Shown here in pieces: positions 30,742-46,733 of a stretch of 64,000 nucleotides of DNA. The translations under genes and the position numbers were made by a program. Numbering within the stretch: the stretch's first letter is position 1; every line of letters begins with the position of its first letter. A model generated the notes under the pieces. The model was not told the DNA's origin and did no database searches. It worked only from the letters and a program-made list of their open reading frames with translations. Source of the stretch: Alphaproteobacteria bacterium (GTDB lineage Bacteria > Pseudomonadota > Alphaproteobacteria > CBDDJK01); NCBI GenBank assembly GCA_965229605.1, contig OZ245892.1, positions 1,608,102 to 1,672,101 on the forward strand, written 5' to 3'.

Positions 30742-30803
30742 AACTCTGTATGCTGAAGTTTTAAACGCAAGTCAATATAAATAAAAAGCACGAATATTTA
30801 AAA

Positions 30804-31595: not shown

Positions 31596-31615
31596 ACAAG
31601 AAAGGAGAATTTACG

Positions 31616-33264: not shown

Positions 33265-34679
33265 AAAAATCTTATGACTATCCCTTTGAGTTACCGGATG
33301 AGGAAGAAATCCGCTTTAATGATGCTGGGGCCATTGAAGGCCGTCCGGCAGGTGTTCCAAGTTCGTATGATGAAGGGGGCTCGACCCGCTGGACGCCGGA
33401 GGCAATATCCGAAGTCCATGCGCTGGCACAGCTTGGCCGTTATCAGGTGCGCGGTTACAATACGTTCAATAAAAGGATGCCGACCTTTGATGACCTGACG
33501 TTCGTTCCGGCAACCATGACACGCTTGCCGCTGGAAGGATACCGGGAAAGCTGCGACACCACGACCATTCTGGGAGGCGGTCGCGGACCGGATGTGGTGG
33601 CAAGGCCGCTTGAATTGAAAATACCGATCTATATCGCCTCTATGTCCTTTGGCGCATTGTCGGCCTCGGCAAAGGCGTCACTTGGCTTTGGCGCCTCGAA
33701 AGTCGGCACGATGACCTGTACGGGCGAAGGCGGCATGCTGGAAGAAGAGCGTGAAGCGTCACAAAAACTGGTCTATCAGATGTCACCTGCCCGCTATGGC
33801 ATTGACCTTGATCACCTTAGAAGGGCCGATGGTCTTGAAATCGTTGTCGGACAAGGGGCCAAGCCGGGGACAGGCGGCTTATTGCTTGGCATGAAGGTCA
33901 GTCCCCGTGTCTCGCAGATGCGCACTTTGCCAGAAGGCGTAGACCAACGCTCGACAATTCGACATCCTGATTTCCTGGGTGCCGATGATCTTTCTGTCAA
34001 AATTGAAGAACTTCGGATCGCGACAAATTATCAGGTGCCGATTTCCCTCAAGATGGGCGCGACACGTCCACGCTATGATGTGGCGATTGCTGCCAAGGCC
34101 GGGGCAGATATTATCGTTGTCGACGGGGCCGAGGGGGGAACCGGAGCCTCACCAGAATTATTACTCAATCACACAGGCATTCCCAATATGAGTGCTATTC
34201 GGGCCGCACGCGAAAGCCTTGATGAATGTGGCATGTCCGGCAAGGTCAGCCTTGTGGCTGCGGGCGGTATTCGCTCGGGCGTTGATGCAGCCAAATGTCT
34301 GGCTCTGGGGGCTGATGCTGTGATGATTGGCAATGCCGCAATGATCGCCATGGGCTGTAACTCCCCCCGCTATATTGAGGATTATAAGAAACTCGGCACC
34401 TCGCCGGGGGCCTGTCATCATTGTCATACCGGCATGTGTCCGGTCGGGGTGGCAACTCAGGACCCTGAACTGGAGAAACGCATGAATCCAAAAGCGGGGG
34501 CAGAGCGTGTGGCGCGTTATTTGACAGCGATGACGATGGAAATCACGGCGCTGGCCAAAGCCTGCGGGAAATCATCGGTCCATAATCTTGAAGTTGAGGA
34601 TCTTCGCGCCTTGAGTTTTGAGGCTTCTGCCTTTACCGGGGTGAAGATGGCAGGCATTGATCGAGCCTTTGAGTGGTGA
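33249..34679 (+). CDS. FMN-binding glutamate synthase domain-2 family protein (GlxD / MgsC-like)
   Basis: The protein is 476 aa; …IVVGQGAKPGTGGLLLGMKVS… is a GltB domain-2 signature. It overlaps the upstream gene by 16 nt. Confidence 0.75.
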   Translation: MADDLKKSYDYPFELPDEEEIRFNDAGAIEGRPAGVPSSYDEGGSTRWTPEAISEVHALAQLGRYQVRGYNTFNKRMPTFDDLTFVPATMTRLPLEGYRESCDTTTILGGGRGPDVVARPLELKIPIYIASMSFGALSASAKASLGFGASKVGTMTCTGEGGMLEEEREASQKLVYQMSPARYGIDLDHLRRADGLEIVVGQGAKPGTGGLLLGMKVSPRVSQMRTLPEGVDQRSTIRHPDFLGADDLSVKIEELRIATNYQVPISLKMGATRPRYDVAIAAKAGADIIVVDGAEGGTGASPELLLNHTGIPNMSAIRAARESLDECGMSGKVSLVAAGGIRSGVDAAKCLALGADAVMIGNAAMIAMGCNSPRYIEDYKKLGTSPGACHHCHTGMCPVGVATQDPELEKRMNPKAGAERVARYLTAMTMEITALAKACGKSSVHNLEVEDLRALSFEASAFTGVKMAGIDRAFEW

Positions 34680-34686
34680 TCAAATC

Positions 34687-35379
34687 ATGAAAATTGCTGT
34701 CCTTGATCTGACAACCCATCCCGAGAAATATTTAGGTGGCCTGCCCCGGATTTACACGCAGATTGACCGCTGGCTTTCGCCCTGTCTGCCGGAGGCTGAA
34801 TTGGTGGCCTATGATATTGCGGAAGGCGGTCAAAAACTTCCTTCAACCGCCGACTTTGACGGGCTTGTGGTGAGCGGTTCTGAACTTGGAGTCTATGATG
34901 AAGCGGTCTGGATGCAGCCGCTTCGACGATTATTAAAAGATGCAAAAGCAGCCAAAAAGCCTGTATTCGGCATTTGTTTTGGTCATCAGATCATGGCAGA
35001 CACCTTTGGCGGAAAAGCAGAAAAGGCAGAAGTGGGCAGCCAGCTGGGCGCAAGGTCATTCACAGATTCAAACGGCAGTAAAATTGATGCCTATGTCTGG
35101 CATCAGGATCAGGTGACAAAAGTGCCACCGGGGGCCAGCGTTGTTGCCTCTGCCAGCTATTGTCCAGTCGCCGCCCTTGACTATGATTTTCCGGCAATGT
35201 CTGTTCAGTTTCACCCTGAATATAGCGAAACTCACCTTCGGGAGCTTTATGACCGGCTCCCTGAAACCATCCTCTCTGAGGAATCGCGCAAGAAAGCCGT
35301 GGAGTCTTTTAAAGGGGTCACCGTTCCCGCTGATCTTCATGCGCAGGAAGTCGCGGCTTTTTTCAGAAAACATATCTAG
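34687..35379 (+). CDS. class I glutamine amidotransferase-like protein (PuuD/IpuF-like gamma-glutamyl-amide hydrolase candidate)
   Basis: …KPVFGICFGHQIMAD… contains the Cys nucleophile of the GATase1 / peptidase C26 fold, and a C-terminal His/Glu region follows. Confidence 0.6.
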   Translation: MKIAVLDLTTHPEKYLGGLPRIYTQIDRWLSPCLPEAELVAYDIAEGGQKLPSTADFDGLVVSGSELGVYDEAVWMQPLRRLLKDAKAAKKPVFGICFGHQIMADTFGGKAEKAEVGSQLGARSFTDSNGSKIDAYVWHQDQVTKVPPGASVVASASYCPVAALDYDFPAMSVQFHPEYSETHLRELYDRLPETILSEESRKKAVESFKGVTVPADLHAQEVAAFFRKHI

Positions 35380-35388: not shown

Positions 35389-36531
35389 CTAACGACCGCT
35401 TGGACTTTCCTTCGGGCTTAATTTGCGGCGACCCTTCACCTTGAAACGCTCCGCCGTGCCATAATCTTTCAGCGCGACACCGGCCACAAAATCGCCGAAC
35501 ACTGGACCATGTTTGAACAGATGCCCGGAGCATCCACCCGCAAACAGAACATTTTTATGCTCAGGATGCCAGTCAACAATGAAATGTGTGTCCGGGGTCA
35601 GGATCACCTGATTAAACTTGGAATCAACCACGCGCTGGCCAATCAGACCCGGCAAACGATGCTGGATATAGCTTCTGGTTTTGTTAAGCGCGTTCTTTTC
35701 AATCAAACGCTCGTCATTATTGATATCAATCGGCGTATGGGGAATGACAACCGCTGCCTTGACCCCCGACCCTTCTGATGACGGAATACCAAAGGACCCC
35801 TGCCCGTGATCAATCCAGCACGGCATATTTTCCATATCAAACTGGTCTGACCCGTCCGGCGTTGACGTATAAAGAACATTAATGCCCATGATAACTGAAA
35901 TTGGCGCGATGGTTTTACGAAACATTTCTGCCATCCAGGCCCCGGTTGCAATCACGATGATATCGGCTTCAAGGGGTTTGCCATCCAGCATCGGGCGTTC
36001 GTTCACATCGGTGGTGACGGTGCCGCGCAGGACCTTTCCACCCTCTTTCTTAAAAAGCGCAAGCGTGGTTATGACACAGCGATGCGCCATCAAAAGTCCC
36101 GCCTCCGGCTCAAACAGCGCATATTGAATTTCATCAACCTTGAACTGAGGAAACCGCGCACGGATATCGGCCTGCGAAAACCGGTAATAGGGGACTCCAA
36201 CCTTGTCAAACGTCTGCGAGGTTGCATCCTCCCAGTCGCAATGCCCCCCGGTCGCAAGGATCAGGGCCCCGCATTCATACATCAGGTTCTGGCCGGTTTC
36301 GGCCTGCAATTCCAGCCAGCGAGACCGGCTTTCACGCGCCCAGCGTGTGTAGAATTCATCGCGCCCGGAAATCGCCCGGATAACCCGGTTATAGTCGCTG
36401 GAGGCGGCTCTTGCATGGCCGGGCTCCCAACGGTCGATCAAGGTCACCTGCGCGCCCCGGCGCTGAAGATGAAGGGCCGTCATGGTGCCAGCAATGCCGC
36501 CACCGACAACATAAACTTTTTCTCTTAGCAT
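35389..36531 (-). CDS. FAD-dependent oxidoreductase (DadA / PuuB / sarcosine-oxidase-beta family)
   Basis: The start MLREKVYVVGGGIAGTMTALHL gives a GxGxxG dinucleotide fold. The longer ORF to 36597 reads through the operator palindrome and I rejected it. Confidence 0.7.
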   Translation of the reverse strand: MLREKVYVVGGGIAGTMTALHLQRRGAQVTLIDRWEPGHARAASSDYNRVIRAISGRDEFYTRWARESRSRWLELQAETGQNLMYECGALILATGGHCDWEDATSQTFDKVGVPYYRFSQADIRARFPQFKVDEIQYALFEPEAGLLMAHRCVITTLALFKKEGGKVLRGTVTTDVNERPMLDGKPLEADIIVIATGAWMAEMFRKTIAPISVIMGINVLYTSTPDGSDQFDMENMPCWIDHGQGSFGIPSSEGSGVKAAVVIPHTPIDINNDERLIEKNALNKTRSYIQHRLPGLIGQRVVDSKFNQVILTPDTHFIVDWHPEHKNVLFAGGCSGHLFKHGPVFGDFVAGVALKDYGTAERFKVKGRRKLSPKESPSGR

Positions 36532-36549
36532 GCTAAAATCACCCTTGCC

Positions 36550-36577
36550 GTATACTGTATAATTGTATACAGTATAC
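36550..36577. promoter_or_regulatory. inverted repeat GTATACTGTATA-ATTG-TATACAGTATAC, the same operator motif, between the FAD oxidoreductase (-) and the GS-like/BMC operon (+)
   Basis: The 12-bp arms are reverse complements of each other and share ACTGTATAC with the 31580 site. A weaker copy, cgtatacagtatcc, lies at 31517-31530. Confidence 0.55.
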
Positions 36578-36684
36578 AAAATGCAGCTTATTGGCAAGCC
36601 CTGTGCCAGAGTATAATAAAGAGATGATAGCGCATAATAAAGGCATCATAGGGCGCAATAACGAGCTAAAAAGGGAGGACTAAC

Positions 36685-37992
36685 ATGCCAGATCAAGATT
36701 TTTCACTGCCAGAAGGGACACATACCGTTGTTCTGGGTTTAGGCGATCTTAACGGGATCATGCGCGGCAAGCGCATACCTTCAAGCCATTGGGACACCAT
36801 CTGCAAAAACGGCAATGCCTTGTCTATTGCGCTTTTTGCATTGGATATGACGTGTGATGTCTGGGATACGCCCTATGTCAATTTTGATAACGGCTATCCT
36901 GACATGCATATGTTCCCGTCAACCAAGCCGATTGCGCTGCCCTGGGAGCCCGGGGTTGCCATGGCATTTGCCCGCGTTGAGGGCATGGACCATAAGCCTG
37001 TTCCGATTGACCCGCGCAATGCGCTTGTTTCTCAGGTGGAGCGTGCAGAAAAGATGGGATTTACGCTTCAGGTCGGGACCGAGCTGGAGTTTCATCTGCT
37101 TGACCCGGAAACGCTGGAGCCAAGAGATCAGGGCATTCAGGTGTACGGTCTGGAACGGGCAGCCGAGCTTGAGCATGTTCTTGGCCCCATCAGACGCCAG
37201 ATCAACGAATGCGGGATTCCGATTGAACAATCGAACCCGGAATATGCGCCGGGCCAGGTTGAGGTGAATATCCGCTATGCGGATGCGCTGCTTGCGGCTG
37301 ACCGGGTTGTGATGTTCCGCACGCTGGTCAAGCAGTTGGCGGCTGCCCATGGCTACAAGGCGACATTTATGGCCAAACCGTTTTTTGAACATTCCGGCAA
37401 TGGTTTCCATGCCCATTATTCTCTCTGGAAAGACGGCAAGAATACTTTTGCCAATGGGGGGAAGCTGAGCGACACGGGTCGTCATTTCCTTGGTGGTATG
37501 CAAAGCCGGATGGCTGAAAATGCGGTCTGTGGCTCTGCCACGGTCAATGGCTATCGCCGCCGCCAGCCTTTCAGTTTCTGCCCGATTAACACAAGCTGGG
37601 GCATCGACAACCGCACGGTCGGCCTGCGCGTGATTGAAGGCAGTGACAGTGCGGTGCGGGTTGAAAAGCGTGATGCGGGGGCGGATTGCAATCCCTATTA
37701 TCTGCTGGCAGCCGATATTGCTGCGGGTCTTGATGGCATAGAGAAATCTATCGAGCCCGGCCCGATATGTGAAGGCAACGGGTATGAACTGGAAGATGAA
37801 CCGCCGATTCCGACTGATCTTGGCACGGCCATCAAGCTGGCCCGGGAGTCGGACTGGTTAAAGAATGTGATGGGCGAGATGCGCTGGGAGCTTTACCTGC
37901 AACAAAGTGAAAGGGAGCTGGCGTTTTTCAACGATTATCTTGCCAATCAGGTGACATCGCATGAGCGCGCGCGGTATTTGAGTAATTTCTGA
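36685..37992 (+). CDS. glutamine synthetase family protein (GmaS/PuuA-like gamma-glutamyl-amide synthetase candidate)
   Basis: The protein is 435 aa with a GS catalytic-domain region (…NPEYAPGQVEVNIRYADAL…FMAKPFFEHSGNGFHAHYSLW…). Its size matches GmaS-type GS-III-like enzymes. Confidence 0.8.
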   Translation: MPDQDFSLPEGTHTVVLGLGDLNGIMRGKRIPSSHWDTICKNGNALSIALFALDMTCDVWDTPYVNFDNGYPDMHMFPSTKPIALPWEPGVAMAFARVEGMDHKPVPIDPRNALVSQVERAEKMGFTLQVGTELEFHLLDPETLEPRDQGIQVYGLERAAELEHVLGPIRRQINECGIPIEQSNPEYAPGQVEVNIRYADALLAADRVVMFRTLVKQLAAAHGYKATFMAKPFFEHSGNGFHAHYSLWKDGKNTFANGGKLSDTGRHFLGGMQSRMAENAVCGSATVNGYRRRQPFSFCPINTSWGIDNRTVGLRVIEGSDSAVRVEKRDAGADCNPYYLLAADIAAGLDGIEKSIEPGPICEGNGYELEDEPPIPTDLGTAIKLARESDWLKNVMGEMRWELYLQQSERELAFFNDYLANQVTSHERARYLSNF

Positions 37993-38264
37993 TGAAGCTT
38001 GCGATTGTCACAGGAACGGTTACGGCAACGGCGAAAGACCCGCAGCTTGTGGGTCAGAAGCTGCTGGTTTGCGACTGCATTGATGCGTCGGGAAAGGTGA
38101 CGGAGCCTGCCCTGGTTGCAACCGATTCACTTGGTGCTGGTGTTGGCAACAAGGTCCTGGTTGTTACAGGCTCTGCTGCCAGAATGCTGAGCGGCACGTC
38201 TGGTGTGCCGGTGGATGCGGCGATATGCGGAATTATTGATCAGGTTGAAGTAAAATCTAAATAG
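37992..38264 (+). CDS. bacterial microcompartment vertex (pentamer) protein, EutN/CcmL/PduN family (BMC-P)
   Basis: [29 protein letters not shown]…[22 protein letters not shown] is the classic PF03319 pattern. The ATG overlaps the GS-like stop (TGATG). Confidence 0.85.
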
Positions 38265-38284
38265 TTAACCAAAGGAGAAATAAA

Positions 38285-38581
38285 ATGGCTAAACCAACCC
38301 CCGGGCAAGCAGCCCTTGGTATGATTGAGACTCGCGGTCTTGTAGCTTCGATGGAAGCGGCGGATGCGATGGTGAAGGCTGCGAGTGTAAATATTGTGGC
38401 CCAGCATAGAGCGGGCGGCGGTCTTGTTGCGACGCTGGTGCGTGGAGAGGTCGGCGCGGTTAAAGCGGCGACTGATGCGGGCGCGACGGCTGCCAACAAG
38501 GTTGGCGAGGTTGTATCGGTTCATGTGATTGCCCGCCCGCATGACGAGCTTGAGGCGATTATAGACGGTCTTTCCGGCTAG
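38285..38581 (+). CDS. bacterial microcompartment shell hexamer protein, PduA/EutM/CcmK type (BMC-H)
   Basis: …[29 protein letters not shown]…[15 protein letters not shown]…[10 protein letters not shown] is the PF00936 signature. A strong AAGGAG RBS precedes it. Confidence 0.9.
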
Positions 38582-38613
38582 GCATCAAGTGACAAGCAAT
38601 CGCGGCCCCCATA

Positions 38614-39816
38614 ATGAGTTCGGGCATGAGTTCGGAATTTATTGAGTTTGCTGAAGCCGCCGCAGCGGGTCGGAAGGGCGCAGAAGCCGCTCCCCGGCTC
38701 AATTTGCAAAAAGTGGCTGTTTTGGGCGGGCAGGCTGATGCCCGGCTTTTTGCCGGACTTTGCCTTTCAGAAGGGGCAGAGGTCACGCTTTTTTCGGCTT
38801 ACGGCAGCGAGCTTTCTGCACTGCGTAGCGGGTCCGGTATAAGCCTGCGCGGAGCCGGACCGGTCGGGGTTTATCAGGTTGACCGCAAAGACAGCCCGTC
38901 GGTTCGCTTGACGGCCGAGCTTGATGTGGCGGTAAATGATGCGGACCTCATCTTTCTGACCGGCCCCATTCATAAACAGCGCACCTATGCGATGGTGCTG
39001 GCCGATCACCTTAAAGACGGTCAGGTGCTTGTCCTTTGCCCCGGCAGATCATTGGGGGCTTTAGAAACCGCCTGGATGCTGCGCATTGGGGGGTGTCGTG
39101 CGGACATTACCATTGTTGAAATTCAGGGACTTCCCTACTGGATTGCTCAGGAAGGGTCGGTGCTGCATTTAAGCGAACGCGGAAAGCTGCAAACTGCCAC
39201 CCTGCCCAGAAACCGCCCCGCTGTTGTTGAGGCACTCAACCGCTTCTTTCCTCATCTTCACCCCGTGGACAATGTGCTTGCATCAGGCTTTTCAGACGGC
39301 TCTGCACTGGTCGAATTTCCAGCCCTGCTTTTAGGTGGCCCGGCCATGGGGTCCGGTGCCTTGAAAATCCCGATGGGCGGAACACCACTTGAAGAGAACA
39401 CGAATTTTGCCAATCTGATTGGTTCTGAACAACGCACTTTAATTGAAAAGCTGGCAGCCGAACGCATCGCCGTTGCCGAAAGGTTCGGGGTGCGCATAAT
39501 GCCTGACGTTGATTCATGGATAGACTCATACGCCGGGGCCAGCAAAGGAAGCGGCTGCCGACCGGTGCCGGGTGCAGAAGAAGCAAAAGCGATTTTGCGG
39601 GATGGCGTGATCGGTTCACTGGTGCCTTTGATTTCTGCGGCAGAGCTTGCCGGGGTCGATGTTCCACTCACGCGCTCCATGGTCACAATCGCGTCAAACC
39701 TGTTGGGCGCAGATATCGCTTCTGCCGGGCGGCGGCTGGATACGATTGGCATTCGCGACAATGAACTGGACAGTGCCAGGCTGCGGATGGATGAAATTGC
39801 GACAGGAAATGCATAA
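38614..39816 (+). CDS. NAD(P)-binding opine-dehydrogenase-like / ApbA-N-like protein of unknown function
   Basis: The Rossmann N-terminus is KVAVLGGQADARLFAG, and the 400-aa size and pattern recall octopine/nopaline dehydrogenase-like proteins. The N-terminal SEFIEFAEAAAAGRKG looks like an amphipathic helix followed by a linker. Confidence 0.35.
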   Translation: MSSGMSSEFIEFAEAAAAGRKGAEAAPRLNLQKVAVLGGQADARLFAGLCLSEGAEVTLFSAYGSELSALRSGSGISLRGAGPVGVYQVDRKDSPSVRLTAELDVAVNDADLIFLTGPIHKQRTYAMVLADHLKDGQVLVLCPGRSLGALETAWMLRIGGCRADITIVEIQGLPYWIAQEGSVLHLSERGKLQTATLPRNRPAVVEALNRFFPHLHPVDNVLASGFSDGSALVEFPALLLGGPAMGSGALKIPMGGTPLEENTNFANLIGSEQRTLIEKLAAERIAVAERFGVRIMPDVDSWIDSYAGASKGSGCRPVPGAEEAKAILRDGVIGSLVPLISAAELAGVDVPLTRSMVTIASNLLGADIASAGRRLDTIGIRDNELDSARLRMDEIATGNA

Positions 39817-41195
39817 TGGATGCTGACCTGAAATCAATCGCTGCCGCCAGACATTGTGCGGAAACGGCTTTCCAGGCCTATCAGCAGTTTCTTGGGACAG
39901 AGGTATCGCAGGTTGATGCGATTGTTCAGGCCATGGCCGAGGCGATTGACCCGGAAGCCGCACGGCTTGGGAAAATGGCGGCAGATGAAACCGGCTACGG
40001 TAATGCCGAACATAAGCGGATCAAGGACCTGATGAATGCCAGAGGCACCGCAAGCTGGCTAAGAGAAGTTAAAACGCTGGGGCTTTTGTGGCGGGACGAT
40101 GCCACCAAAGTCGCTGCTTTTGGTGAACCGATGGGGGTTGTCGCCGCCTTGATTCCGGTGACCAACCCGACCTCGACCATCATCTTCAAGGTCTTGTCTG
40201 CGGTGAAGGCAGGCAATGCTATCGTCTGCGCCCCGCATCCACGTGCGGTGAAATGCGGAATTGAAGTCATTAAAATCATGTCCACCGTCGCAGAACAGAT
40301 GGGCGCCCCGAAAGGGCTTATCCAATGTCTGGATCAGGTAACCATTCAGGGCACAGCGGAACTCATGAGCCACCGCAGAACATCGGTTGTGATGGCAACC
40401 GGTGGACCCGCCATGGTGAAAGCGGCCTATTCAAGCGGCAAACCGACGCTGGCAGTGGGGGCAGGCAATGTGCCCTGTTATGTTCATAAATCCATGCGCG
40501 GTGAACTCGCAGAAGTCGCGGCACAGATCGTCGCGTCAAAATCATTCGACTATGGCACCGCTTGCGTGGCGGAACAGGCCGTCATTGCGGACCCTGAAAT
40601 CGCACGCGACCTGCGCCATGAACTCAAACTGGCCGGGGCTTATTTCTGCACGCCGGGCGAAGCGGACCGGCTGGCAAAAGTTATTTTCACCGGCAAACAG
40701 ACCATGGACCCTGCCCGTGTCGGTCAGTCTCCATTCGTGCTCGCCGAATGTGCAGGATTTTCCATCCCGCCAAAAACCACCTGTCTTGTCAGCAACGAAA
40801 CCGAAATTGGCTGGAACCGGCCTTTGTCTGCTGAAAAACTCAATCCGGTGCTGGCCTTCTATGAAGCCCGAGACGGTGATCATGGCGTCGAACTGGCGAA
40901 CAAAATTGCAAAATTCGGCGGGTGGGGACATTCATCTGTCGTCCATACGCATGATCCTCAAATTATTGCAAAATTTTCCCGTATTCCGACCGCCCGCGTG
41001 CTGGTCAATGTGCCCGCCCTTCATGGCGGGGCGGGCTATGCAACCGACCTGGAACCCTCCTTTATGCTGGGAACGGGGACCTGGTCCGGGTCCATGACAT
41101 CAGACAATGTCACCGCTTTGCACCTGATCAATATCAAACGGGTCGCCTATGGAAATCGACCCTGGCGAGACATTTATGAGGAGTACGGGGTTTGA
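39816..41195 (+). CDS. CoA-acylating aldehyde dehydrogenase (EutE/PduP family)
   Basis: The protein is 459 aa. …VVMATGGPAMVKAAYSSGKPTLAVGAGNVP… and the catalytic Cys context (…DYGTACVAEQAV…) are typical of BMC-associated acylating ALDH. The start overlaps the upstream stop (TAATG). Confidence 0.8.
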   Translation: MDADLKSIAAARHCAETAFQAYQQFLGTEVSQVDAIVQAMAEAIDPEAARLGKMAADETGYGNAEHKRIKDLMNARGTASWLREVKTLGLLWRDDATKVAAFGEPMGVVAALIPVTNPTSTIIFKVLSAVKAGNAIVCAPHPRAVKCGIEVIKIMSTVAEQMGAPKGLIQCLDQVTIQGTAELMSHRRTSVVMATGGPAMVKAAYSSGKPTLAVGAGNVPCYVHKSMRGELAEVAAQIVASKSFDYGTACVAEQAVIADPEIARDLRHELKLAGAYFCTPGEADRLAKVIFTGKQTMDPARVGQSPFVLAECAGFSIPPKTTCLVSNETEIGWNRPLSAEKLNPVLAFYEARDGDHGVELANKIAKFGGWGHSSVVHTHDPQIIAKFSRIPTARVLVNVPALHGGAGYATDLEPSFMLGTGTWSGSMTSDNVTALHLINIKRVAYGNRPWRDIYEEYGV

Positions 41196-41815
41196 GCAAT
41201 ATAACCATCCGCGCCATGATGCAGATTGACAATCTGCAACCAAAATTTGCTGCCTATAACGGGGCAACGGTTCAAGGGTCCATTCCGCTTTCAGGCGACA
41301 CCGTCCTTATCGGTGAACTGGCCCCGGGCAACGGCGTTTTTGGCCTGATTGACCGGGCCTTGAAAGCCTCGGCGGTTGAAGCCACCTCCCAGATCGTTGA
41401 ACGGGAATTTGGCTTTTTCATCCTGCGCTCGCCGTCCAATGCCGAAGTCAGCATGGCCAGAGATTCTATCCTGTCCGAACTTGGCGCGACCCTGTCTGAT
41501 CGCCTTAAACCTGAAATCAGCTCAACCCAGATTATCACCTCGGTTGAACCCCATCAGGCACAGCTTCTCAACAAATGGCGAAAAGGGTCGCTTCTGGTTC
41601 CCGGACAAACCCTCGGCATTATCGAATGTGCGCCTGCGGCCTATATTTCGATTGCGGCAAACGAGGCCGAAAAAGCCGCAGAAATAGATATGGTCGAAAT
41701 CCGTGCGGTTGGACGCTTTGGTCGGCTTTTTATCTCGGGGTCGGAAAATTCGGTAAAGACCGCCGTTGAGGCCGCCATTAAAGCCATTGATGCCGTTGAT
41801 GGAAAATCCGGCTAA
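41192..41815 (+). CDS. tandem-BMC-domain shell protein (BMC-T)
   Basis: The protein is 207 aa with two BMC-like halves. The second half, …GIIECAPAAYISIAANEAEKAAEIDMVEIRAVGRFGRLFISGSENSVKTAVEAAI…, fits the BMC fold. The start is a TTG overlapping the ALDH stop (or the ATG at 41216). Confidence 0.65.
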   Translation: MSNITIRAMMQIDNLQPKFAAYNGATVQGSIPLSGDTVLIGELAPGNGVFGLIDRALKASAVEATSQIVEREFGFFILRSPSNAEVSMARDSILSELGATLSDRLKPEISSTQIITSVEPHQAQLLNKWRKGSLLVPGQTLGIIECAPAAYISIAANEAEKAAEIDMVEIRAVGRFGRLFISGSENSVKTAVEAAIKAIDAVDGKSG

Positions 41816-43002
41816 TGGCAGGACGAATTGTCGGATCGGAACTGATTGAGGATGCCCGCCAGCGCGGACGGATCGTCTTTGAAGTGCTGCCTGATGATAT
41901 CATCACCGCGCTTGCCCGGGAAACTGCCGAGCGTCTTGGCATAAAGCTGGTAAACGGGCCCATCGAAAAACCCGCCGCTGTCAGGACAGATGGACAGTCT
42001 GCAATGCGGCGTGGATTATATCGGCGCGGCGCAAAATGGGTGGCCCCACGCAGATCGCTTTCTGCGACAACCAGACGCTTTACAAAAATCGGCCTGATCG
42101 GGGCTGGAGGCGTTGGCACCAACATTGCCCATCTGGCCGCCATGAGCGATATGGCAGACGAAATCACGCTGGTTGATATTGCACCGGGCATTGCGGCGGC
42201 AACCGCGCTTGATCTCAATCACGCCAGCGGCATCACCCGAAGCCGCGCCCGCTGCATCGGCAGTGAAGACCTGAGTGCTATTTCCGGGTCAGATGTTGTC
42301 GTTGTAACGGCTGGAAGGGCGCGCACGCCTGGCATGAGTCGCAGTGATTTAATTGAAACAAATGCACGGGTCATTCGTTCTGCTGGCGAGGCGATAAAAA
42401 CGGTCGCCCCCCATGCCATCGCCCTTGTTGTCACCAATCCGCTTGATGAAATGACTGTCGAGATGTTGCGGGCAACCGGTTTTCCACGAGAACGGGTGCT
42501 TGGCATGGCTGGCACACTTGATTCCAGCCGCTTCAGACATGCGCTTGCCCGGGCAGCCGGAGTCACGCCAGCAGATGTTGAAGCGATTACGCTTGGCAGC
42601 CATGGCGAGGAAATGGCCCCCATCCCTTCCCTGGCCCGGATCAAAGGACGTGCGCTCACAACCTGTTTGAGCGAGGATCAGATTAACGCCTGTGTTCAAG
42701 AGGCGGTGACAGGTGGCGGACAGGTTGTTGCGTTGAAAAAATCCGGTTCCGCCACAATCGCGCCCGCCCATGCAACCATCGAGATTATGAATCATCTGCG
42801 GGGTGCCCTTAGTGGATCTGTGCCTGTATCGGTGATGCTCAAGGGGGAATATGGGATTTCCGATGTCGTTTTGGGGGTACCAGCGCATCTTGGGCAGAGT
42901 GGCTTGCTGGAAGTTGAAGAATTGCGCCTTTCTGAACAGGAATTGACCGCACTCAGAAAAGCGGCAGGTGCGATCAAAGAACGTATCGGGATAAACGGAT
43001 GA
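41815..43002 (+). CDS. L-lactate/malate dehydrogenase family protein with an about 95-aa N-terminal extension
   Basis: The LDH/MDH core runs from KIGLIGAGGVGTNIA…ITLVDI…VVVTAGRARTPGMSRSDL…LDSSRFRHAL. The N-terminal about 95 aa (MAGRIVGSELIEDARQRGRIVFEVLPDDIITALARETAERLGIKLV…) is not part of the LDH fold. The start overlaps the BMC-T stop (TAATG). Confidence 0.75.
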   Translation: MAGRIVGSELIEDARQRGRIVFEVLPDDIITALARETAERLGIKLVNGPIEKPAAVRTDGQSAMRRGLYRRGAKWVAPRRSLSATTRRFTKIGLIGAGGVGTNIAHLAAMSDMADEITLVDIAPGIAAATALDLNHASGITRSRARCIGSEDLSAISGSDVVVVTAGRARTPGMSRSDLIETNARVIRSAGEAIKTVAPHAIALVVTNPLDEMTVEMLRATGFPRERVLGMAGTLDSSRFRHALARAAGVTPADVEAITLGSHGEEMAPIPSLARIKGRALTTCLSEDQINACVQEAVTGGGQVVALKKSGSATIAPAHATIEIMNHLRGALSGSVPVSVMLKGEYGISDVVLGVPAHLGQSGLLEVEELRLSEQELTALRKAAGAIKERIGING

Positions 43003-43403
43003 TTATCAAACACCGAGCCGGTGGACGGTTTGAGGAAATCGGGTCCTATTCGCGGGCAAAGCGGGTTGGCCCCTTTGTTTATGTGGCTGGCACGACTGCC
43101 ATCGAACCAAGCGGGAAACTGCATGCCCCCGGCGATACCTATGCGCAATCAATCTTTATTCTGGGACGCATTGAAAATGCCTTAAAGGAAGTTGGCGCAA
43201 ATCTGACCCATGTGGTCCGCACCCGCGCCTATTTGACGGATATGTCGCAGGCTGGTGGCTTTGTTCGTGCGCATGGCGAGGTTTTTAAATATATTGATCC
43301 GGTGCTGACAGGCGTTGAAGCCGGACTGACCCAGCCCGGCATGATGGTCGAAATTGATGTCGATGCCATCATTCATAATGCCGATGGCGTGATCGACTAT
43401 TAG
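42999..43403 (+). CDS. ridA: RidA family (YjgF/L-PSP) reactive enamine/imine deaminase
   Basis: The protein is 134 aa; …VYVAGTTAIEP…AQSIFILGRIENALKEVGANLTHVVRTRAYLTDM… is the RidA signature. The ATG overlaps the upstream stop (ATGA). Confidence 0.8.
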   Translation: MIIKHRAGGRFEEIGSYSRAKRVGPFVYVAGTTAIEPSGKLHAPGDTYAQSIFILGRIENALKEVGANLTHVVRTRAYLTDMSQAGGFVRAHGEVFKYIDPVLTGVEAGLTQPGMMVEIDVDAIIHNADGVIDY

Positions 43404-43418: not shown

Positions 43419-44126
43419 TCACGCCCCAAAATAACTTTTTGCCAGCATATCATCTTTGGACAATTCTGCCGCCGTTCCACTCGCCGTTATATGTCCGCTT
43501 TCCAGCACATATAATCTCTGGGCAAGCGAAAGGGCAAAATTCGCATTTTGCTCGGTCACAATAACCGTCAGGCCAAACTCGGCACTCAATCGCTTTAAAA
43601 CCTCGGCAATCTCCAGACAGATTTTTGGCGCAAGACCTATCGTCGGCTCGTCAACCAGAAGAATCCTCGGCGAGGTCATCATGGCCCGGCCCAGCGAAAC
43701 CATCTGACGCTCTCCACCAGACTGGGTTGAGGTCTCCTGATTTTTGCGCTCCGCAAGACGCGGAAACAACTGCTCAACGGCTGCAAGATTTTTCGCGATA
43801 TCGTCTCTTGCGCTATAGGCTCCGACAAGCAAATTATCGCGCACCGACATATGGGGAAAGAGATTAAAACGCTCCGGCGCATAGCCAAGACCCTGCTCAA
43901 CCATATATTTTGGCTTCTTGCCTGTGACATCAATACCCTCCAGCTTGATCGTCCCACGGCACGAAACCAGCCCCATGATACTATCCAGAAGCGTCGATTT
44001 GCCAGCCCCGTTTGCGCCAACAATCGCAATGGTTTCCCCCTCCTCAACATGCAAATTAATATCCGTGAGGGCTTGAGCCTTGCCGTAAAAAGCACTCAGA
44101 TTTTCAATCTCGAGCAATGACATCAA
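43419..44126 (-). CDS. ABC transporter ATP-binding protein, LivF-type (branched-chain amino acid/amide family)
   Basis: Walker A GANGAGKSTLL and the LSGGERQ signature are present. The protein is 235 aa. Confidence 0.8.
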   Translation of the reverse strand: MMSLLEIENLSAFYGKAQALTDINLHVEEGETIAIVGANGAGKSTLLDSIMGLVSCRGTIKLEGIDVTGKKPKYMVEQGLGYAPERFNLFPHMSVRDNLLVGAYSARDDIAKNLAAVEQLFPRLAERKNQETSTQSGGERQMVSLGRAMMTSPRILLVDEPTIGLAPKICLEIAEVLKRLSAEFGLTVIVTEQNANFALSLAQRLYVLESGHITASGTAAELSKDDMLAKSYFGA

Positions 44127-44854
44127 GCGGCTCCCAGGTAAGAGGAACGCACAGATTCATCCGCAAGAACATCCTTGAAGCTGCCTTGTGCCAGCAAGCT
44201 GCCGCGCTCAATCGCAAGGGCACGGTCCACAAGCGGCTCCATCGCCGGAAGATCATGACTGACCATCAAAAAGGTGAAACCGTCCTTGCGCAGCTTTTGA
44301 ATGACCTCTGATATCATGGAAATTTCACCCCGGGTGAGACCGGCAAACACCTCGTCCAGCAAGAGTATTTTTGCCCCCGTCGCCAATGTACGCGCAAATT
44401 CAAGTTTGCGCAGATCCCCCATCGCAAGCTCAGAAACCTGCCGCTCAAGGTCTGTGGGCGAAAAACCAACAGCTTCAGCAAGTTCCTGTTCTTTATTGAG
44501 ATCGCTTTTGGCAAAAATCATCCGCAAAATACTGTCCGGCATAAGACCCACCCGAATATTCTCCCGAACCGTCAGGTCCCCAAAAGGCTTGGGTACCTGA
44601 TAGGTGCGGCTCACCCCTTTTGAAATCCTCTGCGCCGTGCCAAGCTTTGAAATCTCCTTGCCAAACAATTTGATCGACCCGCTGGTCTGAATATGCTCCC
44701 CCATAATCAAGGAGAAAATCGTGGTCTTGCCTGCACCATTCGGGCCAATCAGACCCAGCGACTCGCCTTCAAACAGATCAAAACTCAGATCATTGGTAGC
44801 AACCAGCCCGCCAAACTTCTTGACCAGATTGCGCACCTCAATGACAGCACTCAT
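44123..44854 (-). CDS. ABC transporter ATP-binding protein, LivG-type
   Basis: The start MSAVIEVRNLVKKFGG follows a GAGGGG RBS, and Walker A GPNGAGKTT is present. I rejected the longer ORF to 44992. Confidence 0.8.
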   Translation of the reverse strand: MSAVIEVRNLVKKFGGLVATNDLSFDLFEGESLGLIGPNGAGKTTIFSLIMGEHIQTSGSIKLFGKEISKLGTAQRISKGVSRTYQVPKPFGDLTVRENIRVGLMPDSILRMIFAKSDLNKEQELAEAVGFSPTDLERQVSELAMGDLRKLEFARTLATGAKILLLDEVFAGLTRGEISMISEVIQKLRKDGFTFLMVSHDLPAMEPLVDRALAIERGSLLAQGSFKDVLADESVRSSYLGAA

Positions 44855-45795
44855 CAAGCTTTTCCCCTCAACCGTGTAATGGCAGTTTCCACAATCGCCA
44901 CAATGCCTTTCGGCTGATACATATATAAAACCAGCGCAATCCCGCCATAGACGAAATAACGCTCGGCTCCTGGCAGAAAAGGCCGCAGCCACTCCAATAG
45001 AAATACAAGGAAAAAAGCCCCGAAGATTGGGCCGATAATGGTCCCGGCCCCGCCAATCAGGGCCGCAACCAGAATTGTGAACAGGAAATTGATGTCAAAC
45101 AATGCACGCGGGGCAAGCGACCCCAGATAGTGAACATAAAATGCACCCGACACACCGGCAACAAAAGCAGAAACCAGAAAGGCAAAAGCTTTCAGCCTGG
45201 TCGTGGACAAGCCGGACCCCGCAACACTCTCTTCATTCATGCCGATGGCCCAAAGGGCGGTGCCAACCCGGGTCCGCATAAGCAACCAGGCCCCGATGGA
45301 CAAAACCAGCAAAACGGAAACGGCAAGATAATAGCCGTTTTCAGCCCCCCGCGTAAGGGTTTGAATGCCAGACATTCCGCGTGTGCCGCCGGTCAGATCA
45401 GGGCGGATAACCTGAACCAGCTGATACATCAATTCCATGAAGGCAAGGGTAACCAAAGCAAAATAGGAGCCTTTGATGCGCAGTGCGGGCATTAAAATAA
45501 TCAGCCCGGCGATCATGGTGACAATGACCGCGATTGGAATGGAAAACTCCACAGGGACATCAAAACGCTTGCTGAGAATGGCGGTTGTATAAGCGGCGAT
45601 CCCGATCAGGAACGGATGACCAAAACTTATATAGCCTGTTCGCCCGGACAGAATGTCCCAGGAAACCGCAAAAGCTGCAAGATAACAGGCAAATATCATG
45701 GTTCTTAATGTGCCTTTTGAAACCAGTTCCGGCAGCAGCAGCAGCCCCAGAATAAAGGCCCCCCAAAGGGCGATATGATGGAATCGCAAATTCAT
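44854..45795 (-). CDS. ABC transporter permease, LivM-type
   Basis: It is a 313-aa polytopic membrane protein whose stop overlaps the livG-type start. Confidence 0.75.
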   Translation of the reverse strand: MNLRFHHIALWGAFILGLLLLPELVSKGTLRTMIFACYLAAFAVSWDILSGRTGYISFGHPFLIGIAAYTTAILSKRFDVPVEFSIPIAVIVTMIAGLIILMPALRIKGSYFALVTLAFMELMYQLVQVIRPDLTGGTRGMSGIQTLTRGAENGYYLAVSVLLVLSIGAWLLMRTRVGTALWAIGMNEESVAGSGLSTTRLKAFAFLVSAFVAGVSGAFYVHYLGSLAPRALFDINFLFTILVAALIGGAGTIIGPIFGAFFLVFLLEWLRPFLPGAERYFVYGGIALVLYMYQPKGIVAIVETAITRLRGKA

Positions 45796-45807
45796 TTAAT
45801 TTTCTGC

Positions 45808-46659
45808 TTAGCTTTCCGCGCGGCCAAAGATTCCTTGCGGGCGCAAAACAAGCACACCGATAATCAGCAGCATGGTAAAGACGCCCCGAAGCTCGGGCGC
45901 CCAGAGCGAAACAACGATGACTTCAAGAAATCCGATGATATGGGCCACCAGCAAGGTGCCGATAATTGAACCAATACCGCCGACAATCACGACTGCAACC
46001 GATATAATCAGGGGGGCAACCCACATCCCCGGGTAAAGCTGGGTGTATGATGCGAAGAAAACCCCGCCCAGCGCACCAAGCCCACCAGAAATTCCCCAGG
46101 TAATCAGGTTGATGCGATCTGGATCAACCCCGGAAATAGCCGCCCCCTTCGGGTCCATGGACACGGCTTGCATGGCCCGCCCCGTATGGGTGCGACTGAT
46201 ATAGAAGTAAAGGGCGATAATCACGGCCCAGCTGATCAGTGCTGCAACCAGAATATTAAAGGTAACTTGCGCGCCAGCAACGGTGATAACGCCTGGAATG
46301 ATCGGCAAAAGAATCTTCGAGCTGTCTCCGAACAACAGAATAATGCCTGCCTGAATGATAACAGCGACGATCAGTGTTGAAATTTCAACCGCAACATGAT
46401 TGCCTTTAAGCGGTTTGACAATGAACCGATGCTTCAGGCAGCCGATCAGAATGCCGATAAAGACTGCTCCCAGGATACCGATAAACTGCGGCATTCCAAG
46501 CAGCTGAGAAAGCCAGAAATAGCCATAGCCGCCTGCCATAATATATGCACCATAGGCAAGATTGAGTGTTCGCCCGACAGAAAATATCAACATAAATCCC
46601 ATCGATATCAGGGCATATAATCCACTCAAGAGCATACCCTGAATAATGATTTGCATCAT
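45808..46659 (-). CDS. ABC transporter permease, LivH-type
   Basis: It is a 283-aa polytopic membrane protein. Confidence 0.75.
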   Translation of the reverse strand: MMQIIIQGMLLSGLYALISMGFMLIFSVGRTLNLAYGAYIMAGGYGYFWLSQLLGMPQFIGILGAVFIGILIGCLKHRFIVKPLKGNHVAVEISTLIVAVIIQAGIILLFGDSSKILLPIIPGVITVAGAQVTFNILVAALISWAVIIALYFYISRTHTGRAMQAVSMDPKGAAISGVDPDRINLITWGISGGLGALGGVFFASYTQLYPGMWVAPLIISVAVVIVGGIGSIIGTLLVAHIIGFLEVIVVSLWAPELRGVFTMLLIIGVLVLRPQGIFGRAES

Positions 46660-46733
46660 TGATTTTAAACCTGTTGATAGATAAGGGCGATCATTTGACC
46701 GCCCTTATCTTGCACATATAGGTCTTGCACAGG

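Follow-up and report, generated by a model that had tools for sequence, protein, structure and literature searches.

An alphaproteobacterial operon that very probably encodes a MIC2-type microcompartment, and its conserved gene neighbourhood

[quoted passage not shown] Its NAD+ recycling has been stated to be unsettled (PMC11626177), and our literature search found no paper tying MIC2 to any substrate. Among minimal shells, the engineered HO shell is built with BMC-T1, whose trimer has a single layer (PMC10853475).

We found that eight + strand genes at positions 36685-43403 of the window (the whole 64-kb stretch of DNA analysed) very likely constitute a chromosomal microcompartment locus of the MIC2 class, in identity and architecture, because the gene set agrees in every point with what has been published on MIC2. 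By its gene content the locus thus appears to be of an already known type, that of Sutter et al., and not a new one. The first-pass annotation had the junctions, gene coordinates and shell count right but did not recognise a catalogued microcompartment. The operon consists of the following genes:

36685-37992, + strand: GS-like ATP-dependent ligase, putative gamma-glutamyl-amine synthetase, first gene (Gln-synt_C, 294 bits)
37992-38264, + strand: BMC-P pentamer (vertex) shell protein (EutN_CcmL, 96 bits, full length)
38285-38581, + strand: BMC-H hexamer shell protein (BMC domain, 87 bits; own AGGAG ribosome-binding site in an unstructured 20-nt gap, fold z +1.4)
38614-39816, + strand: opine-dehydrogenase-superfamily NAD(P) oxidoreductase, ODH-like (Octopine_DH; start probably 38626)
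39816-41195, + strand: CoA-acylating aldehyde dehydrogenase, AldDH, EutE/PduP type (TIGR02518, 474 bits)
41192-41815, + strand: BMC-T shell protein of the double-stacking permuted (Tdp; CcmP/CsoS1D) class, TTG start (from PDB matches and orthologue domains)
41815-43002, + strand: LDH-like malate dehydrogenase, MDH-like (passes NF004863, 316 > 283)
42999-43403, + strand: Rid (YjgF/UK114) family protein, last gene (PF01042, 78 bits)

The Pfam calls are, in order, Gln-synt_C, EutN_CcmL, BMC, Octopine_DH, Aldedh, BMC, Ldh_1_N/C and Ribonuc_L-PSP, so that the shell genes are interleaved with a GS-like ligase, an ODH-like enzyme, a CoA-acylating aldehyde dehydrogenase, an MDH-like enzyme and a Rid-family protein. 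Neither PduL/Pta nor an alcohol dehydrogenase was found within the 64-kb window.

The genes are joined by five start/stop overlaps of 1-4 nt and two short gaps. Overlaps of -1 occur at GS-like/BMC-P (TGATG), ODH-like/AldDH (TAATG) and BMC-T/MDH-like (TAATG), and 4-nt overlaps at AldDH/BMC-T (TTGA, using the TTG start) and MDH-like/Rid (ATGA, -4). BMC-P and BMC-H are separated by 20 nt with AAAGGAGA as ribosome-binding site, and BMC-H and ODH-like by 32 nt, or by 44 nt if translation starts at Met5 as in 120 homologues; this second gap has no recognisable Shine-Dalgarno sequence. The overlaps are hence those first described, but a strong ribosome-binding site, claimed for the short gaps, is present in only one of the two (BMC-P/BMC-H). 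We compared these junctions with those of relatives, using 178 species genomes that carry a relative of the operon's ODH-like enzyme, from which 80 loci were fetched. The GS/BMC-P gap was ≤4 nt in 78/78 related loci (-1 in 52), ODH/AldDH was -1 in 48/75, AldDH/BMC-T was -4 in 34/72, BMC-T/MDH was -1 or -4 in 51/69 and MDH/Rid was -4 in 41/68, and the real gaps were nearly always kept (BMC-P/BMC-H in 75/78 loci, BMC-H/ODH in 79/79). Because the pattern is kept across 68-79 related loci, the packing is more than chance. Between 30300 and 44300, promoter-like matches (15 vs 9.8±3.3 in shuffles) and terminator-like matches (22 vs 16.1±4.5) were not enriched, and no significant hairpin was detected in the BMC-P/BMC-H gap, the BMC-H/ODH gap or 3' of the last gene (z +1.4, +0.9 and +1.3). 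The proposed single operon from the GS-like gene to Rid is supported by the junctions and their conservation, and matches to promoters or terminators, which had been named as its refutation, show no enrichment. The sequence therefore supports GS-like through Rid as a probable single transcription unit, tightly and translationally coupled.

The shell classes BMC-P, BMC-H and BMC-T are each represented in the window by a single gene, as first counted. Permissive tblastn revealed no further shell gene in the 64 kb, and more than three shell genes were present in 0/80 related loci (±10 kb), so the extra paralogs that had been raised as a counter-argument did not appear there. This supports a minimal one-H/one-T/one-P set, which may suffice for a shell. 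The PDB matches of BMC-T were CcmP (4ht5, E 4e-47), HO-5816, CsoS1D and MSM0275, and its orthologues contain PF27545 CsoS1D_N plus a BMC domain. The earlier likening to an HO-type minimal set is therefore apt by gene count, but BMC-T here is of the double-stacking CcmP/CsoS1D type and not HO T1; moreover, the natural HO set has one H, three P and three T proteins, whereas the MIC2 locus has one of each.

Among the operon proteins, a canonical encapsulation peptide is confined to the ODH-like enzyme, whose N-terminus consists of MSSEFIEFAEAAAA followed by a variable linker. In the homologues (396 aa), M1, F5 and F8 are invariant and the linker varies, and the AF2 model (pLDDT 80.8) has a helix at residues 3-16 followed by a disordered stretch. 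When an ODH profile was searched against 1.84 billion representatives, matches above ∼165 bits aligned from profile position 1-15, and weaker matches of ∼360 aa began at position 28-30 and therefore do not have the peptide; distant peptide-bearing members had the same GS-P-H-ODH-AldDH context. The best fold match was CENDH (1bg6, E 4e-20), a catabolic secondary-amine dehydrogenase and the nearest to the ODH-like enzyme. In the ODH-like clade an invariant Glu stands where CENDH has its catalytic His202, and therefore the reaction may be a different one altogether. As a rule, opine dehydrogenases oxidise the carbon that bears the carboxyl group, which would yield 2-oxoglutarate and the amine but no aldehyde. 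The analogy for aldehyde-forming regiochemistry comes from the glutamate-forming saccharopine dehydrogenase, which belongs to a family unrelated to the ODH-like enzyme.

AldDH residues 2-456 correspond to positions 1-454 of the 488-position TIGR02518 profile, with the catalytic Cys in FDYGTACVAEQ; examination of its termini showed no N-terminal extension. The MDH-like protein has a conserved 88-residue N-terminal extension made up of a small alpha/beta domain (residues 5-47) and a basic tail. Its R170, R176, D236, R239 and H263 (= R102, R109, D168, R171 and H195) are invariant in 50 homologues, and all oxaloacetate-binding residues are kept. The last protein had been labelled RidA, which goes too far: it reaches only 47 of 106 bits against TIGR00004, and in 45 sequences the column of the catalytic Arg105 holds Leu, Thr, Met or Val, so that it is a Rid-family protein without an Arg105 equivalent.

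What, then, lies around the operon? The neighbouring features are:

30804-31550, - strand: GntR/FCD (FadR-subfamily) transcription regulator (Pfam GntR + FCD; start uncertain, 227 aa in the gene call of the near-identical MAG)
31579-31598: operator-like palindrome CATACTGTATACAGTATACA in the GntR/mgsA-like intergenic region, with a half-site also at 31519-31529
31616-32575, + strand: MgsA-like class-II (Ntn) amidotransferase subunit (Pfam GATase_6/7; 42/80 loci)
32542-33264, + strand: MgsB-like GXGXG subunit (Pfam GXGXG; 44/80 loci)
33249-34679, + strand: MgsC-like FMN glutamate-synthase-domain subunit (Pfam Glu_synthase, 329 bits; 45/80 loci)
34657-35379, + strand: class-I glutamine-amidotransferase-like/peptidase-C26-like protein, putative gamma-glutamyl-amide hydrolase (Pfam GATase, Peptidase_C26; 33/80 loci)
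35389-36531, - strand: monomeric sarcosine-oxidase/N-methyltryptophan-oxidase-like FAD enzyme, DAO, divergent to the operon (Pfam DAO)
36549-36579: operator, two TATAC(T/A)GTATA palindromes in the spacer separating the divergently transcribed DAO and GS-like genes
43419-48020, - strand: HAAT-family (Liv-type) ABC importer with two ATPases, two permeases and a 428-aa periplasmic binding protein (Pfam Peripla_BP_6; gene calls in locus L082)

The MgsA-like protein starts M-C-G-I and keeps the catalytic Cys1; the MgsB-like protein (230 aa) likely starts at 32572, overlapping the mgsA-like stop (gene call in L082); and the MgsC-like protein is 80-95% identical across relatives. The hydrolase-like gene, with GICFGHQ and FHPE catalytic motifs, probably starts at 34687. 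DAO scored below cut-off with NCBIfam SolA (189 bits) and soxA_mon (162 bits) and matched MSOX (1el5, E 2e-33); its C-terminal tail (...RRKLSPKESPSGR) is invariant, and it has no canonical amphipathic-helix encapsulation peptide. TATACWGTATA occurs six times in the window (0.2 expected), each time either at a promoter of the regulon or next to the GntR gene (30732). ATACTGTATACAGAATAC is conserved in the DAO-GS intergenic regions of relatives (exact GTATAC in 64/77), and GTATAC is found in 37/37 of their GntR-MgsA regions; the two promoter regions thus have the operator in common.

The arrangement DAO|GS-P-H-ODH-AldDH-T-MDH-Rid is syntenic in the 80 loci (Rhodobacterales, Rhizobiaceae, Granulosicoccaceae, Halioglobus, Geminicoccaceae), where gene order and tight junctions are kept. 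DAO is nearly always present (77/80 loci), as is the GS-like gene (79/80), and an amino-acid-type transporter usually is. GntR (upstream in about 41/80) and the N-methylglutamate-synthase-like genes accompany over half of the loci (only about 55% within 10 kb). The importer is inverted here, whereas most relatives have it in the direction of the operon (LivKHMGF 3' of Rid, + strand; 52-57/80). A distant locus, L087 (ODH 40% and GntR 35% identical), keeps GntR, MgsABC, DAO, Rid and all BMC genes, with Rid adjoining DAO outside the BMC operon; its importer is of a different family, and importers of both families are more typically associated with amino acids than with simple alkylamines. By this conservation and the shared operator, the operon belongs to a conserved GntR/FCD regulon with DAO, MgsABC, the hydrolase-like gene and an amino-acid-type importer.

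The GS-like protein does not reach the NCBIfam cut-offs for GS I (GlnA), GSIII (237/470) and gamma-glutamylputrescine synthetase (PuuA-type; 207 bits), and its best PDB match is 5dm3 (190 bits), with GmaS 7cql at 145 bits. Ethylamine and propylamine are among the substrates of GmaS-type ligases (PMC7948447). Because its regulon contains importers, an amine-oxidase-type flavoenzyme and N-methylglutamate-synthase-like genes, we see a signature of gamma-glutamyl-amine catabolism. The 'biosynthetic-type' label originally given to this protein is at odds with these scores and this company; it may tentatively be regarded as a catabolic enzyme like the gamma-glutamyl-amine ligases.

The conserved neighbours suggest breakdown of an amine-type nutrient via a toxic aldehyde. 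An imported amine or amino-acid-like compound would be ATP-ligated to glutamate by the GS-like enzyme, and MgsABC would convert the gamma-glutamyl amide to an N-alkylglutamate-type secondary amine. The encapsulated ODH-like enzyme would cleave this oxidatively to a short-chain aldehyde and glutamate, and AldDH would trap the aldehyde as acyl-CoA. An encapsulated MDH may re-oxidise NADH with oxaloacetate (malate/oxaloacetate NAD+ recycling), in place of the missing alcohol dehydrogenase. Without a phosphotransacylase, CoA and acyl-CoA would have to cross the shell, plausibly via a gated Tdp pore. The flavoenzyme and Rid may form a cytosolic oxidase/imine-hydrolase pair, on the same C-N bond class or at an upstream step. 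Taken whole, MIC2 with this mechanism is probably the best explanation; the amine to aldehyde to acyl-CoA route itself is an even call, and the individual enzyme assignments are tentative.

MSOX-family enzymes and the related catalytic subunit of N-methylglutamate dehydrogenase perform N-dealkylation to an aldehyde. By family precedent, the MSOX-like flavoenzyme would thus be the more natural aldehyde-forming enzyme, which speaks against our explanation. Also against it are the usual chemistry of opine dehydrogenases, the Glu in place of His202, the presence of MgsABC and GntR near only some 55% of the loci, and the leaning of both importer families towards amino acids. DAO and Rid could N-dealkylate an N-alkylglutamate at or on the shell, with the ODH-like and MDH-like enzymes as NADH-consuming partners supplying AldDH with NAD+. 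This chemistry fits the family exactly, DAO is near-universal in the loci and under the operon's operator, its invariant tail could serve docking, and Rid adjoins DAO in L087. We nevertheless consider it rather unlikely: DAO is divergently transcribed and without the encapsulation peptide, aldehyde freed outside the shell defeats the usual metabolosome logic, and two NADH sinks against one source are unbalanced. A Puu/Pau-like route is improbable, although all four Puu protein types (GS-like, DAO-family oxidase, aldehyde dehydrogenase, peptidase-C26-like hydrolase) are in the regulon. Here a diamine or amino alcohol would be gamma-glutamylated, its free end becoming a gamma-glutamyl-aldehyde handled by the compartment before the hydrolase removes the glutamyl group. 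It leaves MgsABC, ODH-like and MDH-like without a role, the oxidase is MSOX-like (secondary amines) and not PuuB-like, AldDH is CoA-acylating and PuuC is not, and the hydrolase is the least conserved member.

Could the compartment instead degrade an imported marine opine, or another N-(carboxyalkyl) amino acid, by the ODH-like enzyme, with GS-like/MgsABC assimilating the amine? The kinship to CENDH, a catabolic opine-type dehydrogenase, and the amino-acid-type importers are consistent with this, as are the carriers: to judge from organism names, most of them live in the sea, and some (Lentibacter algarum, Hoeflea alexandrii, Candidatus Rhodobacter oscarellae) are associated with algae, dinoflagellates or sponges. 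Canonical cleavage would give a 2-oxo acid and not an aldehyde, however, leaving the acylating AldDH and the shell unexplained, and the catalytic His is Glu in this clade; we hold this reading to be quite improbable. Least credible is an anabolic compartment along the lines of the original view, in which the minimal shell would enclose a glutamine synthetase of biosynthetic type that is co-translated with the shell proteins. The GS-like protein fails the GS equivalog cut-offs and, on examination of its termini, has no extension or encapsulation peptide; the regulon is centred on importers, oxidases and an acylating AldDH, and gene sets that combine GntR/FCD control with an importer are typically catabolic. 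What does speak for that view is the conserved GS-like/BMC-P overlap (TGATG), with its tight spacing in every one of the 78 loci compared.

The first-pass annotation described the genes from the GS-like ligase to the Rid protein as a single operon whose members are joined either by start/stop overlaps or by short gaps with strong ribosome-binding sites (RBS). The gene coordinates were borne out by the ORF listing and by direct reading of the junctions, and each of the assigned families was confirmed by Pfam. The eight genes are:

36685-37992, + strand, GS-like ligase
37992-38264, + strand, BMC-P
38285-38581, + strand, BMC-H
38614-39816, + strand, 400-aa Octopine_DH-domain protein (ODH-like)
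39816-41195, + strand, aldehyde dehydrogenase (AldDH)
41192-41815, + strand, BMC-T, TTG start
41815-43002, + strand, Ldh/Mdh-family protein (MDH-like)
42999-43403, + strand, L-PSP/Rid protein

At five junctions the neighbouring genes share 1 or 4 nt, exactly as quoted. The description of the gaps holds for BMC-P/BMC-H (20 nt, with the RBS AAAGGAGA) but not for BMC-H/ODH, where 32 nt contain no clear Shine-Dalgarno sequence; this second gap grows to 44 nt if the ODH-like protein starts at Met5, as 120 homologues of 394-404 aa suggest. The junction geometry is kept among relatives: the GS and BMC-P genes are never more than 4 nt apart (78/78 loci), and the only regular gaps are those flanking BMC-H, as would suit a major shell protein that is translated strongly and on its own. 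Promoter-like and terminator-like matches were not enriched relative to shuffled sequences; both gaps and the stretch 3' of the last gene also folded no better than shuffles. Two overlapping terminator-like hairpins with T-runs (38727-38756) lie at the Rossmann motif of the ODH-like gene. As they fall within a coding region and such matches are not enriched relative to shuffles, we treated them as chance; they are probably a by-product of the coding sequence.

Judged by its sequence features, the locus belongs to a catalogued type of bacterial microcompartment, MIC2 ('metabolosome with incomplete core'), for which 22 loci were listed (Sutter et al. 2021, Nat Commun 12:3809, Supplementary Data 2). 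The catalogue gives as MIC2 enzymes an AldDH without encapsulation peptide, a pfam02866 Ldh/Mdh with an ~70-aa N-terminal extension, a 6-PGDH-like-superfamily protein with a short helical N-terminal peptide and a pfam00120 glutamine synthetase, in hosts from the Acidithiobacillia, Alpha- and Gammaproteobacteria, plus two Actinobacteria. Each defining feature that could be tested was found here. The pfam00171 enzyme (Aldedh) has no N-terminal extension, since its residues 2-456 cover positions 1-454 of the 488 in the acylating ACDH model. Ldh_1_N begins only at residue 90 of the MDH-like protein, after an extension that is conserved in homologues, and the 6-phosphogluconate-DH-like protein (Octopine_DH) opens with a conserved MSxxFAEFAEAA helix and a variable linker. 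The pfam00120 gene (Gln-synt_C, 294 bits) adjoins BMC-P in 78/78 loci, and the shell proteins belong to the BMC families, with CsoS1D_N plus BMC in orthologues of the trimer. As for the incomplete core, neither a phosphotransacylase (PduL/Pta) nor an alcohol dehydrogenase occurs among the ORFs of the window, and de novo clustering returned no PTAC or ADH among the gene families conserved over 80 related loci.

The core of this locus thus does not differ from published MIC2: the AldDH, the extended Ldh/Mdh (~70-90 aa), the 6-PGDH-like/opine-DH-like protein, the GS and the Proteobacterial hosts are common to both. Accordingly, the flagged gene set and its minimal P/H/T shell are already in the 2021 catalogue, and the finding itself adds little. 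What the published description does not contain, and this locus does, are an MSOX-like flavoenzyme, Rid, MgsABC, a GntR regulator with an operator, and an importer. By AldDH phylogeny, the catalogue places MIC1 and then RMM1 (RMM1/AAUM) nearest to MIC2. MIC1 has the extended Ldh/Mdh as well but, unlike this locus, a Zn-ADH. RMM1 also breaks down an amine (1-amino-2-propanol/aminoacetone) to an aldehyde and on to an acyl-CoA, and the RMM shell proteins MSM0275 and MSM0271 match the BMC-T of this locus; RMM, however, uses a kinase and a phospho-lyase aminotransferase where this locus has a GS-like ligase and an opine-DH-like enzyme. Our literature search found no functional work on MIC2 and no paper after the catalogue that gives it a function, and a 2024 paper (PMC11626177) counts MIC2 with those types for which the route of NAD+ regeneration has yet to be settled. 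MIC2 is still a functional orphan with respect to its substrate, signature reaction and NAD+ recycling route, and the remaining interest lies in a testable functional hypothesis and in a distribution wider than reported.

The shell had been likened to a minimal set of the HO type, a reading that was right in part. One H, one T and one P gene are indeed present, with no other shell gene in the 64-kb window, and no satellite loci are reported for MIC2 genomes (Sutter et al. 2021). The BMC-T matches CcmP, HO-5816, CsoS1D and RMM MSM0275 (E 1e-39 to 1e-47) and its orthologues combine PF27545 CsoS1D_N with BMC, which places it in the double-stacking class. The engineered minimal HO shell, in the account of Hagen et al. 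2018 cited in PMC10853475, likewise consists of one hexamer, one trimer and one pentamer (BMC-H + BMC-T1 + BMC-P), but its T1 is a single-layer trimer, whereas the trimer here is CcmP/CsoS1D-like. Moreover, the natural HO organelle has 1 H, 3 P and 3 T (Sutter et al. 2021), while at this locus the minimal set is the natural state. A natural three-gene minimal shell with a gated Tdp trimer would be an attractive chassis for shell engineering. Overall, the observation of the first-pass annotation was confirmed, and its interpretation only partly so.

A profile search found relatives of the ODH-like protein in 178 species-level genomes, compared with the 22 catalogued loci. We fetched 80 of these loci and probed them by tblastn with the proteins of the window. 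The hosts are mostly marine Rhodobacterales, Rhizobiaceae (Ahrensia, Hoeflea), Granulosicoccaceae, Halioglobus and Geminicoccaceae, and several carriers are cultured marine isolates. Cultured carriers include Ruegeria profundi ZGT108, Ruegeria sp. ANG-R, Sulfitobacter aestuariivivens TSTF-M16, Lentibacter algarum B3M08, Hoeflea alexandrii, Aliishimia ponticola MYP11 and Microbaculum marinum KCTC 52363. Gene order is strictly syntenic: a divergent gene of the MSOX-like flavoenzyme family (DAO; 35389-36531, - strand, in the window) stands before the operon in 77/80 loci, followed by GS (79), BMC-P (79), BMC-H (79), ODH (80), AldDH (76), BMC-T (72), MDH (69) and Rid (68), with missing genes coinciding with contig ends. 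Upstream, GntR (-) and MgsABC (+) are found in 41-45/80 loci and the class-I amidotransferase-like gene in 33/80. In most loci (52-57/80) the operon is followed by a Liv-type ABC importer in the same orientation. That importer is inverted in the window (43419-48020) and in one relative (L019); the Rid gene and the first importer ATPase gene of the window converge, their stop codons only 15 nt apart, and have no terminator hairpin between them. A distant locus, L087 (40% identity in ODH, 52% in GS, 35% in GntR), retains GntR, MgsABC, DAO and Rid along with a complete set of BMC genes, with Rid adjoining GntR/DAO rather than the end of the BMC operon and an APC-family permease in place of the ABC system. 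Tested as an ethanolamine permease, it reached 72 bits where the cut-off is 382, and that identity was rejected. Further distant peptide-bearing ODH-like proteins also lie in a GS-P-H-ODH-AldDH context. De novo ORF clustering of the 80 loci gave no further widely conserved family apart from an ~120-aa Cys-rich protein (C-x2-C ... C ... CPN), which in 14 loci is encoded in the interval from the amidotransferase-like gene to DAO and is absent from the window. Amidases occur in only 2-3/80 loci and were discarded as a core feature; amidase-signature genes adjoin two loci (L081 and L087), one of them frameshifted. In L081, which has no MgsABC nearby, an IS/transposase lies directly upstream of DAO. 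Positions in these relatives' loci are:

L034, 6473-6838, ~120-aa Cys-rich protein (one of 14 loci)
L036, 5450-5854, ~120-aa Cys-rich protein
L040, 4530-4892, ~120-aa Cys-rich protein
L045, 6470-6856, ~120-aa Cys-rich protein
L081, 5359-6732 and 19545-21191, IS/transposase and amidase-signature observations
L087, 14338-15749, amidase-signature observation

The palindrome TATAC(T/A)GTATA has 6 matches in the window against 0.2 expected. These sites map to the GntR/mgsA region, to the intergenic region between DAO and GS, and to a point shortly past the 3' end of the GntR gene:

36549-36579, operator palindrome
31579-31598, operator palindrome
31519-31529, further operator half-site
30732-30742, further operator palindrome

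Relatives keep ATACTGTATACAGAATAC between DAO and GS (exact GTATAC in 64/77), and GTATAC is present in 37/37 of their GntR/MgsA intergenic regions. The operator is conserved across families, often between inverted CCTTGCC...GGCAAGG, and its form fits that of operators bound by FadR-subfamily GntR proteins. Because the palindrome is common to the DAO/GS and GntR/mgsA regions, there is good support for joint control of the flavoenzyme, the BMC operon and the MgsABC unit through this putative operator. A conserved regulon of this kind (GntR operator, MgsABC-like proteins, MSOX-like oxidase, Rid and importers) turns the gap around MIC2 into concrete experiments.

Among the enzymes, the GS-like ligase, which has no terminal extension, fell below the cut-offs for GS III, GlnA and gamma-glutamylputrescine synthetase; against TIGR03105 (GmaS / GS type III) it reached 237 bits, with a cut-off of 469.6. 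Among structures, 5dm3, a GS-like protein that is uncharacterised, matches it better (190 bits) than GmaS 7cql does (145 bits). The MgsA-like subunit keeps its N-terminal Cys, and the class-I amidotransferase-like protein its Cys/His/Glu motifs. The N-methylglutamate pathway of methylamine utilisation (GmaS, MgsABC, MgdABCD) likewise pairs a GS-like ligase with a three-subunit, glutamate-synthase-like MgsABC of the same domain split. Its four-subunit MgdABCD is missing at this locus, which has a monomeric MSOX-like enzyme, and in canonical form it includes no shell, acylating AldDH, ODH-like or MDH-like enzyme. Since the ligase is not a GmaS equivalog, methylamine and formaldehyde are unlikely substrates; GmaS-type ligases also accept ethylamine and propylamine (PMC7948447). 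The importer binding protein was uninformative as a substrate clue, with only weak Liv/urea matches in NCBIfam and, as its best PDB match, an unliganded 'extracellular ligand-binding receptor' (4zpj, E 1e-10).

The ODH-like protein begins with a conserved helix (M1, F5 and F8 invariant) and a variable, disordered linker. By both structure and sequence its best match is N-(1-D-carboxyethyl)-L-norvaline dehydrogenase (CENDH, 1bg6), followed by octopine dehydrogenase and ketopantoate reductases. It shares the two-domain fold of CENDH (TM 0.82 normalised to 1bg6, 23% identity) and a full-length profile match (E 1e-20), but its clade differs from CENDH and octopine dehydrogenase in carrying an N-terminal encapsulation peptide. 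The family is small (64 clusters at E<=1e-30 among 1.84 billion representatives), and its peptide-bearing members separate from ordinary peptide-less opine dehydrogenases (~360 aa). With CENDH residues numbered as we take the literature to number them, the catalytic His202 aligns with an invariant Glu230 of the ODH-like clade (SALVEFPALL, 39301-39315), and R325/D326 lie one or two alignment positions off R292/D297. Near relatives have Asp/Glu in the His202 column, whereas the most distant relatives, with or without the peptide, have His. Glu at this position suggests an altered chemistry.

The AldDH is CoA-acylating and EutE/AdhE-like (474 bits). The MDH-like protein scored above the NCBIfam cut-off for a malate dehydrogenase subfamily (NF004863, 316 vs 283), and the equivalents of Arg102 (dicarboxylate specificity), Arg109, Asp168, Arg171 and His195 are invariant in 50 homologues. 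Its 88-residue N-terminal extension is strongly conserved and was modelled by AF2 (pLDDT 72) as a small beta-alpha-beta-beta-alpha-beta domain with a basic tail. The EutQ/cupin homology claimed for the extension in the catalogue was not confirmed: a Pfam search of four homologues (E<=10) turned up no relevant family, the best Foldseek match of the model to the PDB had an E of 0.19, and a word-indexed homologue search with the extension returned only same-family fragments.

The divergent DAO gene encodes a monomeric-sarcosine-oxidase/SolA-like flavoenzyme. Its C-terminal tail, ...RRKLSPKESPSGR (DRFK-x3-R(R/K)KLSPKESPSGR; 35389-35460), reaches past the region that aligns with monomeric sarcosine oxidase, was invariant in all homologues examined and is possibly a docking or targeting motif. 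The name RidA given to the last gene of the operon stood only at the level of the Rid family. Arg105 (E. coli numbering), which in RidA binds the substrate carboxylate, is the mark of the archetypal 2-iminoacid deaminase; its equivalent, in a column located with what we take to be the E. coli RidA reference sequence, is missing in 45/45 sequences, the window protein (Leu) and 44 homologues (L/T/M/V overall), and the TIGR00004 score was 47 bits against a cut-off of 106.

We infer that the regulon joins two cytosolic steps of the N-methylglutamate pathway to a metabolosome core. An ATP-dependent gamma-glutamyl-amide ligase would act in the cytosol, followed by an MgsABC-type converter of the amide to an N-alkylglutamate. 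As the sole non-core enzyme with a canonical encapsulation peptide, the ODH-like protein would be expected, on the usual pattern of BMCs, to be the signature enzyme that generates the aldehyde; it would oxidatively cleave an N-alkylglutamate-type secondary amine to an aldehyde and glutamate. The AldDH would then turn the aldehyde into an acyl-CoA, and the encapsulated MDH would re-oxidise NADH with oxaloacetate, while in the cytosol a related C-N oxidation, with imine hydrolysis, would fall to the flavoenzyme/Rid pair. The mechanism has its weak points. It demands a particular regiochemistry of an opine-dehydrogenase fold, the MSOX-like enzyme is a competing candidate for the N-dealkylase, MgsABC is absent within 10 kb in ~45% of the loci, and the importers look amino-acid-like. 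A more far-reaching reading, possible but rather unlikely, is that MIC2 is the first BMC with an encapsulated NAD-dependent secondary-amine (N-alkylglutamate/opine-type) dehydrogenase as its signature enzyme, fed by cytosolic gamma-glutamylation and an N-methylglutamate-synthase-like step and regenerating NAD+ through an encapsulated MDH. If true, a malate/oxaloacetate redox shuttle would operate across a protein shell in place of the sacrifice of aldehyde to alcohol, and an orphan organelle in at least 178 mostly marine species would have a function.

Some genes elsewhere in the window are worth recording. Upstream, the - strand (26659-30348) encodes the alpha subunit of a Rieske oxygenase, an AMP-dependent ligase and an aldo/keto reductase. 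Of these, the Rieske and ligase genes at the least recur in a MAG contig of 98% identity (L082), and the other MIC2 loci do not share them. The lowest-GC stretch (0.477) of the window's first 50 kb encodes, next to housekeeping genes (AspRS, FabD), a 619-aa protein (18707-20566) that has a DnaA ATPase domain and a DnaA C-terminal HTH. Finally, a single ORF at 51658-52632 carries both a Fic/DOC domain and, at its C-terminus, a MerR-type HTH.
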